From positions 1 through 43,848 of the forward strand of contig CAIXPV010000070.1 of NCBI GenBank assembly GCA_903921405.1: a stretch of DNA of 43,848 nucleotides, read 5' to 3'. The stretch is from an uncultured Actinomycetes bacterium (lineage in GTDB: Bacteria; Actinomycetota; Actinomycetes; Nanopelagicales; Nanopelagicaceae). The translations under genes were made by a program, and so were the position numbers. The notes below the pieces were generated by a model. It had not been told where the DNA came from. It saw only the letters and a list, made by a program, of their open reading frames with translations, and did not search any database. Every line of letters begins with the position of its first letter. Within the stretch, counting starts at the first letter, position 1. Shown piece by piece: positions 29,664 to 37,490 of the stretch.

Positions 29664-30721
29664 TTACTTAGCTACCCATTGTGCGTAAAACAGGCCTAAG
29701 CCGCCGGCCACACTCAAACCAGCAATGATCCAAAATCGAATTACTACAGTGATCTCGGCCCAACCTTTAAGTTCAAAATGGTGATGAAGCGGCGCCATTT
29801 TAAATACGCGCTTTCCGCCGCTGATTTTGAAATACAGGGTTTGAATAACTACCGACATAGTGATTATTACGAATAAGCCGCCTAGCGGAATCAGTAGGAG
29901 CTCCACACGAAGTGTTGCAGCAAGGCCTGCAATGGCAGCACCCAGTGCAAGTGAGCCTGTATCTCCCATAATTATCTTTGCTGGTGCTGTATTCCACCAC
30001 AGGAACCCCGTACACCCTCCAGCAAATGCTGCAGCAAGTACCGCAAGATCTAAAGGATCGCGAACTTGGTAACAGCCACTCGCGGCATTGACCGCACAGC
30101 TTTGCCCGAACTCCCATACTCCAATTAGTACGAAGGACAGGAACGTCATGATCGTGGCGCCAGTAGCTAAGCCATCTAACCCATCGGTGAGATTAACTCC
30201 ATTACTTGCCGACATCACCATAATAATGATCCAGATGATTGCAAGAATTGGTCCTAAGTAAATGCTAGTTTCGCGAACCCCAGATAGATAATGTGAAATA
30301 GGTGTCAATGAATCGGCATCTGCAAACTTTAGACCAGGAAACCAAAAATACCTGCCAACCCCGCTTGGCTCATTAACTTATAGCGACCCTTTAATCCACG
30401 AGAGTTTTGCCGCGAAACTTTTAACCAATCATCGATGAAACCTATAGCGCCTAAACTCACGACTAATCCGATAACTAGGACTGCAGATACCGTGACTGAG
30501 TTCCCCGAAATCACATGTGCTGCGCCATAGCCAACAATGGCAGCAAGAATAAAAATAATTCCGCCCATGGTTGGTGTTCCACGTTTGGTGTGATGACTAC
30601 TTGGTCCATCATCTCGAATTATCTGTCCATAGCCTCTGCCAGCCAAAATTTTTATGAGACCTTTTGTTCCAAAGAGTGAAAAGGCAAGTGCTATTGCCGC
30701 AGCGATTAGGATCTGTCTCAT
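29664..30721 (-). pseudogene. mraY: Phospho-MurNAc-pentapeptide translocase split by an apparent 1-nt deletion near 30333 (likely sequence error; otherwise frameshifted)
   Basis: 30329..30721 has KRGTPTMGG and IGFIDDW; 29664..30308 has [26 protein letters not shown]; the -1 frame reads [12 protein letters not shown] across the junction. Confidence 0.9.
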
Positions 30722-35367: not shown

Positions 35368-35767
35368 TTGTCGGACTCGTCTGTGGAGTTAATGCTTCGT
35401 CTACATTAAGAAAGGTTGGAGTCTCTGAAGGCTTCATCCCAAGTCGGACGGCTGCTTTAGCTAAAGCCTCCGGTGAAGATTGCTTGTCGATTTGGCGCGC
35501 AATTGCCTCGCGTTCGTCACTTACCATCTTTGCTTGAAGCTTGAGATGGGTAAGCGTAAATGCATCCTGGGCCAATAGCGTGTTAATAAATAGTAAAAAG
35601 AGAAGACCCGATATTCCGGCGAAAGATACAAAGGTGGCGAAGAACTTACGATTAGCCTGCTTGCCCTCTGAAATATCTGGCACGAGTTTAAGTGCTACTT
35701 GTGAAGATTTCTCGGCAATAATTTCTCGCGAGCGAGCAATTGCTGGAGCGAATGCGGTCATAGCCAT
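35360..35767 (-). CDS. ftsL: FtsL-like cell division protein
   Basis: TM helix + coiled coil, SPEAL...A.RLGM; canonical position between rsmH and ftsI. Confidence 0.8.
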   Translation of the reverse strand: MAMTAFAPAIARSREIIAEKSSQVALKLVPDISEGKQANRKFFATFVSFAGISGLLFLLFINTLLAQDAFTLTHLKLQAKMVSDEREAIARQIDKQSSPEALAKAAVRLGMKPSETPTFLNVDEALTPQTSPTNG

Positions 35768-36714
35768 TATGCGGCCACCCTTTCAATTGCACGAAGTCGA
35801 ACTGATGCAGAACGTGAGTTTTCTTCTAGTTCCTCGTTGGATGGCGTTTCACTGCCACGAATAACAAGAGCAAACTTTGCGGCTAACTCTGGGAGTTCAA
35901 ATGGGAGGTCGCGTGGAGTCCCTGAAGTTGTTGATGCAGTAAAAAGCTCTTTAACAATGCGATCTTCCAGAGATTGAAATGACATAACTACCAAACGTCC
36001 GCCAACACTTAGAAGTTTGAGCGCAGCCGGTAGAGCACGTGTAATTGCGCCCAGCTCATCATTTGTTTCGATTCGTAGAGCCTGAAAAGTACGTTTAGCA
36101 GGATTTCCACCTGTGCGACGTGTAGCTGCCGGAATAGCTGCTTTTACTAAGGTTGCTAAGGCAACAGTTGAGTTCAATGGCGCGATTGAGCGCGCTTTTA
36201 CAATTGATTCAACTACCCGTGTGGCAAATTTCTCTTCGCCATAGGTTCGTAAAATTCGAACTAACTGACCAGGCTCATATGTGTTAACAATTTCAGCGGC
36301 AGTAAGTGTTTGTGTCCGATCCATTCGCATATCTAGAGGCGCATCTTGTGAATATGAAAATCCTCGATCTGCCTGGTCGAGTTGCATCGATGAAACACCT
36401 AAATCAAATAACGCTCCTGCGATAGTGCTATATCCAAACGATCTTACAATCGCATCGATTGAATCAAATGTTGAATGCGCCCCATGGAAGCGATCTGCAA
36501 AAGGAGTCAAGCGATCAGTTGCGCGTTCAAGTGCATCGCGGTCACGATCAATTCCAATAACAGTGAGCTGAGGGAATTGTTGAAGTAACGCCTCTGTATG
36601 CCCGCCTAAGCCAAGGGTTGCATCGACAACTACGGGTTTATCGCATGAATTAATTGCGGGAGCAAGAAGCTCGATGCATCGATCTCGCATCACTGAAATA
36701 TGCGTACTTGTCAT
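35767..36714 (-). CDS. rsmH: 16S rRNA m4C1402 methyltransferase (start re-called to ATG 36714)
   Basis: HISVM, DATLGLGGH, DLGVSSMQLD, PLDMRM, FQALRI, SLEDRIVK. Confidence 0.98.
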   Translation of the reverse strand: MTSTHISVMRDRCIELLAPAINSCDKPVVVDATLGLGGHTEALLQQFPQLTVIGIDRDRDALERATDRLTPFADRFHGAHSTFDSIDAIVRSFGYSTIAGALFDLGVSSMQLDQADRGFSYSQDAPLDMRMDRTQTLTAAEIVNTYEPGQLVRILRTYGEEKFATRVVESIVKARSIAPLNSTVALATLVKAAIPAATRRTGGNPAKRTFQALRIETNDELGAITRALPAALKLLSVGGRLVVMSFQSLEDRIVKELFTASTTSGTPRDLPFELPELAAKFALVIRGSETPSNEELEENSRSASVRLRAIERVAA

Positions 36715-36759
36715 TTCTCCCCCTTTCAATATTGAAAAACTTCAATTTTTTTTACTTCA

Positions 36760-36863
36760 ACTCTCATCTCTGGTCACCGCCGGCCGACGGATCTATTTAG
36801 TAGCGGCGCCGGGGAAGGGGCGCCGATACGTTCGAAGGGTCGGCGGTGGCCACAGATGAGAGT
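36760..36863 (-). ncRNA. mraW RNA motif-like structured element in the mraZ-rsmH spacer
   Basis: 26-bp outer inverted repeat (36760-36785 / 36838-36863, 3 mismatches) enclosing hairpin CGGCGCC-CCUUCCCC-GGCGCCG (36825-36804); a CUUCCCC loop 5' of mraW/rsmH is the hallmark of the actinobacterial mraW motif. Confidence 0.85.
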
Positions 36864-36866
36864 CAT

Positions 36867-37298
36867 TTAGAACAGTCCTGGAAAGACCTCCTCTGAAACA
36901 TCAGCAAAACTCTTTTCGCGATCTGCTAAATATTCATTCCAAGAAGTTGCATCCCAAATTTCAACGCGAGTATTTGCGCCAATAACAACGCAATCTTTTT
37001 CTAATCCTGCATATGTACGAAGACCTTGTGGAATCGTTATGCGACCTTGACGATCTGGAATTTCATCGTGTGCACCGGCAAACATCACACGGCTGTAATC
37101 GCGTGCTGATTTTGCAGTGACTGGCGCTTGTTTTAGCGTCTCTGTAATAACAGTGAATTCATTTGTTGGAAAAACATAAAGGCAACGTTCTTGTCCTTTA
37201 GTTATTACTAAACCTGACGCTAACTCTTCGCGAAATTTCGCAGGAAGAATGAGACGGCCTTTTTCATCAAGGCGCGGTTCGTGGGTGCCAAGAAACAT
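36867..37298 (-). CDS. mraZ: Division/cell wall cluster transcriptional repressor MraZ
   Basis: MFLGT...LDEKGRL.LP..FR, DRQGRI, EIWD; 143 aa. Confidence 0.98.
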
Positions 37299-37350
37299 TT
37301 TTTAGCGCCCCCTTCCCCAGGTTCGCCAGCCGTGTGGATCCTCGGCTTAG

Positions 37351-37430
37351 TTCCCCACTTTACTCCACTTTCCTCCTTTTTCAACCACCTTTCGCCACTT
37401 TTTACCCTTTTCCACCCACTCTCCCCCCAT
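37351..37430 (-). promoter_or_regulatory. Array of MraZ-binding direct repeats (about 10-nt period, AAGTGG-like)
   Basis: + strand CCAC at 37355, 37365, 37385, 37395 with degenerate copies near 37375, 37406, 37416, 37427. Confidence 0.8.
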
Positions 37431-37440
37431 TGTGTGGGCA

Positions 37441-37467
37441 TAAAAAAAGGACCCTGTTACAGGTCCT
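37441..37467 (-). terminator. Intrinsic terminator after DUF3040 gene
   Basis: Minus strand AGGACCTG-TAA-CAGGGTCCT stem (one bulge) followed by a T-run. Confidence 0.65.
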
Positions 37468-37490
37468 CAAAGAGTCAGACTCGCTAGAAA

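Follow-up and report, generated by a model that had tools for sequence, protein, structure and literature searches.

The C-rich apical loop of a long hairpin between mraZ and rsmH (mraW) in a Nanopelagicaceae genome was found to be complementary to a G-rich loop in the mraZ leader, and within this genome the match is more than chance. The analysis was based on a window of 43,848 nucleotides (the whole stretch of DNA under study) from an Actinomycete of 47% GC and a genome size of 1.50 Mb, taken from these traits to be Ca. Planktophila, and on the genomes of its relatives. Our best explanation, which is held tentatively and with slightly more doubt than belief, is that the C-rich loop after mraZ pairs with the G-rich leader loop over 6 to 8 bp, closes the mraZ ribosome-binding region and dampens MraZ translation, with the case being strongest in this family. 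According to this mechanism: (i) the hairpin after mraZ would display the C-rich loop; (ii) this loop would form a kissing contact of 6 to 8 bp with the G-rich loop of the leader hairpin on the same message; (iii) the loop-loop contact would hold the mraZ ribosome-binding region closed; and (iv) translation of MraZ would be dampened as a result, while the mraZ message, if cleaved at the 3′ foot of this hairpin, would terminate in it. We infer both that the two loops meet in vivo with their stems closed and that the outcome would be repression, not a change in stability or processing. The loop-leader contact is thus presented as a family-level candidate, with a switch being unproven.

The features of the locus are summarized in Table 1. 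Upstream of mraZ, a GTGG-type repeat array is likely to represent the MraZ operator, as judged from its sequence; MraZ boxes have been described with a GTG(T/G) consensus (PMC12957436). The predicted promoter is a consensus match only, with the pattern found once compared with 1.1 occurrences expected in shuffled sequences, and the transcript start was predicted near 37350; the −10 context was present in 53 of 55 Nanopelagicaceae mraZ leaders. The G-run of the leader was considered as an additional MraZ box and rejected, as it was out of the 10-bp phase of the operator boxes in 38 leaders and usually had no GT in front. Just ahead of the operator, a terminator-like hairpin with a U-tract (37447-37468, minus strand) closes the upstream polymerase gene cluster. 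Elsewhere in the window (29664-30721, minus strand), the presumed mraY, so named from sequence features, is split into ORFs of 130 aa and 214 aa, possibly by an assembly frameshift.

Table 1. Coordinates of features in the mraZ-rsmH region, numbered by position in the window.
Feature	Position	Strand	Description
GTGG-type repeat array	37354..37419	-	10-bp phase (37398, 37388, 37368, 37358); overlaps promoter
Predicted sigma-70-type promoter	37357..37384	-	TTGAAA-16-TAAAGT
mraZ leader hairpin	37303..37328	-	UGGCG-AA-CCU-[GGGGAA]-GGG-GG-CGCUA; G-rich loop 37318-37313; stem buries 3′ part of SD
mraZ leader site GGGGAAGGGGGCGC	37318-37305	-	6 nt ahead of mraZ ATG (37298)
mraZ	36867..37298	-	143 aa; ATG at 37298; two PF02381 domains
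mraW-motif hairpin	36751..36868	-	Stem about 36864-36759; begins at mraZ stop codon
Apical loop CCUUCCCC	36811..36818	-	Closed by CGGCGCC/GGCGCCG, a 7-bp GC stem
rsmH SD GAAAGGGGGAG	36727-36717	-	Upstream of ATG 36714
rsmH SD GGGGGAG	36717..36723	-	Second 7-bp loop complement, one G-U
rsmH (mraW)	35767..36714	-	PF01795; ATG 36714 likelier start than TTG 36729

The hairpin after mraZ was compared with the mraW motif (RF01746), which was described from Actinomycetes as a hairpin located between mraZ and rsmH, the CUUCCCC loop of which is invariant (Weinberg et al. 2010, PMC2864571), and was still reported without a function in 2017 (PMC5640933), in line with the initial annotation of the window. 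Like the motif, the host structure is a long hairpin with a terminal CUUCCCC loop, is located directly upstream of rsmH in an Actinomycete, and matches the RF01746 model over its full length (31.3 bits, E-value 2.5e-4; folding z = −5.2); its score is nevertheless below the gathering score of 50, and an Rfam scan of the whole window returned nothing at gathering level. When 41 relatives were compared with the same model, 30 matched at an E-value ≤ 0.1 and only 5 scored above the cut-off; for this reason we consider the hairpin to be a divergent RF01746 homologue and not a threshold member. The loop was found to be fully unpaired in the local folds of 140 of 181 homologues. In the host genome, only four of 77 CUUCCCC sites reside in loops, with that of the mraW hairpin the most stable; a second CUUCCCC-loop hairpin (−10.1 kcal/mol) was noted at C146 (minus strand). 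The spacers of two other genomes (L046 of G070 and L100 of G254) were observed to carry two complete CUUCCCC hairpins in tandem. Among relatives with long mraZ-rsmH spacers, 31 genomes (e.g., L098, L067, L133, and L156) have a small ORF between the hairpin and rsmH; this ORF is about 45 to 130 codons as crudely called, encodes a C-terminal hydrophobic segment, is distributed over at least 15 families and in many cases has a GGGTCGAGATG-like context upstream of its start. In one family (f17; e.g., L065, L082, and L041), MraZ was found to have a low-complexity N-terminal extension of 10 to 70 residues.

The initial annotation had proposed a duplex of 10 bp, or of 13 bp with one bulge, between the conserved loop region GCGCCCCUUCCCC (36823-36811) and the mraZ leader (37318-37305). 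Both sites were confirmed on the sequence and their complementarity is real, but the length of the duplex could not be upheld since only the CCUUCCCC part of the loop region is unpaired in the fold and the leader side lies in a hairpin of its own. This leader hairpin was the most stable of 10 GGGG-loop hairpins detected in a scan of 1,249 host leaders; another GGGGAA-loop leader hairpin was observed at C184 (minus strand; −10.0 kcal/mol). The sequence GGGGAAGGGG occurs only twice when both strands of the 1.50-Mb genome are searched, with the two occurrences corresponding to the mraZ leader and the mraW loop. When 1,251 host leaders, defined as those of crudely called ORFs, were ranked by pairing with the 8-nt loop, the mraZ leader was first (−15.8 kcal/mol) and the rsmH leader tenth, whereas by pairing with the standard anti-SD the mraZ leader ranked only 56th. 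A non-standard anti-SD as the origin of the GGGGAAG sequence was ruled out, as the Nanopelagicaceae anti-SD was the standard GAUCACCUCCUUU in three of three complete family genomes (the host assembly being without a 16S gene). With the costs of opening included, the loop-leader hybrid was estimated at about −10.3 kcal/mol for 8 bp, −4.5 for 10 bp and −2.4 for 13 bp, based on simple sums that leave kissing topology and long-range closure out of account. When the entire transcript was folded with a nested model, which cannot represent a kissing contact, the loop-leader pairing had a probability of about 1e-12. The 13-bp duplex was rejected on its opening costs and on absent covariation; a loop-loop contact of 6 to 8 bp is favored over it because the GGGG hairpin was found to be separate from the ribosome-binding site and to have a covarying stem in seven genera of the family.

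These genera were identified in a survey of the Nanopelagicaceae that included 40 of the 68 family genomes in which mraZ was matched (one of the host genus, the rest from 16 other genera) and a set of 15 genomes from the host genus. A GGGG run was located within 25 nt of the start in all 55 mraZ leaders. The GGGGA[AG]G sequence was detected in 27 of the 40 family leaders compared with 1 of 265 neighboring control leaders, a result which, like the loop and anti-SD rankings, supports an mraZ-specific match in excess of that expected of a generic SD. In the host genus, 14 of 15 mraZ leaders had GGGGAAG, with 11 of these 15 loci originally found via the motif. A GGGG-loop hairpin of −4 kcal/mol or lower was predicted for 35 of 53 family leaders (those of the 55 with a recognizable −10) versus 26 of 318 dinucleotide shuffles, with the other 18 leaders failing this test. 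In seven genera the GGGG-loop hairpin is separate from the SD and near the transcript start, 32 to 42 nt before the start codon (96 nt in one), and pairing there would therefore leave the SD uncovered. When this separate hairpin was compared in loop-anchored ungapped windows from 15 genomes of the seven genera, 95 of 105 stem cells were paired with 33 two-sided changes, while slid controls gave 22 to 58 and none of 5,000 row shuffles reached the observed pairing; the 15 genomes were hand-picked and the invariance of their loop is partly due to this selection. One of the seven genera (g330) was devoid of GGGGA[AG]G at the SD, which argues that GGGG is kept as a displayed loop and not only as an SD. 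A 6C RNA was also considered as the partner of the leader and dismissed, as none was found in six family genomes by a search that was positive in five of five controls.

The initial annotation contained a different account of the loop, in which formation of the 10- to 13-bp duplex would melt the two stems and the loop would act as a two-state switch, alternating between the ribosome-binding sites of mraZ and rsmH. The rsmH site was indeed found to be a complement of the loop, although in a better register (GGGGGAG, 7 bp with one G-U) than the AAGGGG originally put forward, and its rank places both sites in the top 1% of host leaders (1 and 10 of 1,251). Furthermore, GGGG[AG][AG]G was present at rsmH in all 15 genomes of the host genus and, within a 35-nt window, in 23 of 40 rsmH start regions of the family versus 4 of 265 controls; the sole genome of the host genus without GGGGAAG in its mraZ leader (G253, locus L120) carries GGGGAAG at the rsmH SD. 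Outside the family, the rsmH match was limited to 5 of 97 leaders (2 of 97 for GGGGA[AG]G), with the rsmH starts being uncertain, such that this part of the proposal is restricted to the Nanopelagicaceae. Extension of the duplex also gains little after opening costs and is not accompanied by covariation, and cleavage at the foot of the hairpin would part the loop from rsmH. Metatranscriptome contigs, which were of relatives only and a small share (one spanning mraZ and the hairpin, none reaching rsmH), were left out of the evidence. Overall, we view the two-state toggle as improbable and the least plausible of the readings that were weighed.

The survey was extended to Actinomycetes at large by use of the best-scoring 130 of 230 rsmH matches and 27 further genomes found via the motif (one of these rows, G030, representing an unpublished genome). 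The CUUCCCC sequence was found after the mraZ stop codon in 141 of 142 mraZ-positive genomes and in 116 of 117 when genomes were drawn by rsmH alone, and the hairpin had a median distance of 65 nt to the mraZ stop (sd 24), a tighter spacing than the median of 180 (sd 98) measured to the homology anchor in rsmH. Outside the host family, the enrichment of the loop complement that had been anticipated in mraZ leaders was evident, with 48 of 123 leaders, distributed over 20 of 39 families, carrying GGGGA[AG]G compared with 9 of 382 other genes and with 3 of 58 mraZ leaders from other classes of the phylum; however, the full 7-nt complement was missing from the other 75 leaders, and these genomes are kin, such that the p-values overstate significance. 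No CUUCCCC was detected between mraZ and rsmH in the other classes (59 genomes of 200 drawn, 58 of which were scored). The GGGG-loop hairpin was not enriched outside the family (39 of 117 leaders versus 181 of 702 shuffles, p 0.09).

Covariation with loop variants, which had also been expected, was not observed; the loop is invariant and changes in its flanks are mostly uncompensated. Cognate flanks were found to pair no better than within-family shuffles (p 0.07 to 1.0). The base immediately 5′ of the loop (position −1) changes repeatedly on the family tree, with most changes uncompensated and matches confined to one subclade (G778 and G766) and two basal genera. The sole core variant (CUUCCCU in G146) was likewise uncompensated, and no compensated CCCC/GGGG core pair was detected in 181 hairpins, all of which were located via the loop itself. 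The paired core is invariant across homologues, and hence uninformative for covariation, while the flanks are without within-family compensation. This lack of covariation, and the fact that one class amounts to a single phylogenetic event, fit an incidental match in which a strong G-rich mraZ ribosome-binding site happens to have G-rich operator repeats as neighbors and an anti-SD would be mimicked by any C-rich loop. Also consistent with an incidental match is the canonical SD (GGAGGT) detected in 82 of 123 mraZ leaders outside the family, where the anti-SD (−14.9) is a stronger pairing partner than the loop (−9.2). In the family the order is reversed, and the loop (−12.5) is the better partner of the non-canonical GGGGAAG compared with the anti-SD (−11.4). 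In addition, among leaders with GGAGG, a further GG was found ahead of it in 47 of 102 mraZ leaders versus 7 of 76 other genes, the G-loop hairpin is independent of the SD in the seven genera, and the G-run is out of phase with the operator. An incidental match is considered unlikely, and the loop-loop contact is retained as the preferred reading.

Genomes without mraZ were examined next to those with the gene. Of 401 genomes of the class, mraZ was missing only in family f26, where 3 of 36 genomes had single weak hits. We take f26 to be the Streptomycetaceae and family f39 to be the mycobacteria, on the basis of genome size, loss of mraZ and loop flanks like those of the seed rows. A FastTree phylogeny of rsmH alone suggests that mraZ was lost two or three separate times within f26 (L251-L279 and L161-L190). 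In one mraZ-less genus (g26), which retains rsmH, the loop was intact in only 5 of 42 genomes and decayed or absent in 37, with both outer arms retained in 23; this compares with the 116 of 117 rsmH-drawn genomes that have mraZ and the loop, and speaks for a link of the loop to mraZ. The notion that the loop is lost together with mraZ was contradicted by four other genera (g308, g310, g318, and g320), in which mraZ was not found in any of 10 genomes and the loop was intact in all 10 on stems that vary. For a clade of nine of these genomes, the mean rsmH rate predicts about 7.3 loop substitutions, and none were seen (P-value 7e-4). The prediction that the signal would vanish without mraZ therefore failed in these lineages. 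As the ten mraZ-less genomes keep the loop intact, the loop has an mraZ-independent function and silencing of mraZ cannot be its sole role; when their leaders were inspected by eye, no GGGG-loop partner was found.

An mraZ-independent job of the loop could be as (i) a protein or nuclease site for processing at the foot of the hairpin; or (ii) a seed resembling that of 6C, which a released fragment would carry to targets in trans, with the G-rich leader representing a secondary match or the target of another C-rich partner. Apart from the selection on the loop in the nine-genome clade and one genome more, this possibility is supported by a second CUUCCCC in 17 of 142 spacers and, often, in the 3′ bulge of the f26 hairpins. 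Published RNA ends point in the same direction, with the hairpin having 5′ ends at its 3′ foot in Mycobacterium tuberculosis (processed end at 2429340; PMC10641625) and Corynebacterium glutamicum (the observed mraW RNA starting at 2,266,932, which lies within the motif, 16 nt from its 3′ end; PMC3890552), and RNAs of 30 and 60 nt that hybridize with a 3′-arm probe (PMC3526491). The loop itself was considered as an RNase E site and rejected; the C preference of the enzyme would allow it, but among the high-confidence M. tuberculosis rows consulted in the same data set, cleavage is recorded at the foot of the hairpin and not within the loop (PMC10641625). On its own, an mraZ-independent role leaves the GGGG-loop leader hairpin of the family and its covarying stems unexplained, and the loop decays in a large genus that keeps rsmH. 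With regard to action in trans, the other top-ranked host leaders had no obvious common function when their translations were read by eye. We consider such a role alone to be possible, if somewhat less probable than the loop-loop contact, and compatible with this contact as an older function. The contact is best seen as one role of the loop, strongest in Nanopelagicaceae, and not as the sole cause of loop conservation.

The same RNA ends would be consistent with an mraZ message that ends in the hairpin, by analogy to these other species. In M. tuberculosis, mraZ has its own start site and a leader of 38 nt, no start site is listed for rsmH, and the genes are predicted to form one operon (PMC10641625). 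RF01746 is filed as upstream of mraW, whereas the spacing and the published 5′ ends tie the hairpin to the 3′ end of mraZ, and the model does not include an mraZ-leader hairpin with a GGGG loop as its partner. A works-like comparison can be made with the 6C sRNA (RF01066), the C-rich loops of which pair with unpaired G-rich stretches of leaders or ribosome-binding sites and repress without a chaperone (PMC6486639). Pairing of a C-rich loop with a G-rich leader is common to both; however, 6C acts in trans on many mRNAs through two C-run loops, while the host has a single loop in cis about 490 nt downstream, and the 6C model with its two C-rich loops was not matched by the host genome or hairpin. 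Control of mraZ at the RNA level in an Actinomycete, similar to that proposed here, is known from C. glutamicum, where RNase III controls mraZ post-transcriptionally (Maeda et al. 2016, as cited in PMC8247434); this cleavage occurs within the coding region, and the citing passage gives the hairpin and leader no role. In the literature searched, which did not cover the original motif discussion or Eraso 2014, no account of leader-loop pairing was found (see PMC4046766 for additional published context).

A bolder form of the proposal, which we regard as doubtful, is that the mraZ message closes into a ring, with the 5′ GGGG-loop hairpin kissing the CUUCCCC loop at the processed 3′ end. The mraW motif would then be a built-in, 6C-like repressor of MraZ, a protein toxic when overproduced (as cited in PMC13689224), and would uncouple MraZ from the downstream division genes. 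If this ring were to form, the mraW motif, which heads the division operon in nearly all sampled Actinomycetes, would gain its first function, an intramolecular 5′-3′ RNA contact would be added to the autoregulation of MraZ, and bacteria would be found to use a C-loop/G-loop code in cis. A second and broader role is suggested by the lineages in which the loop persists without mraZ.
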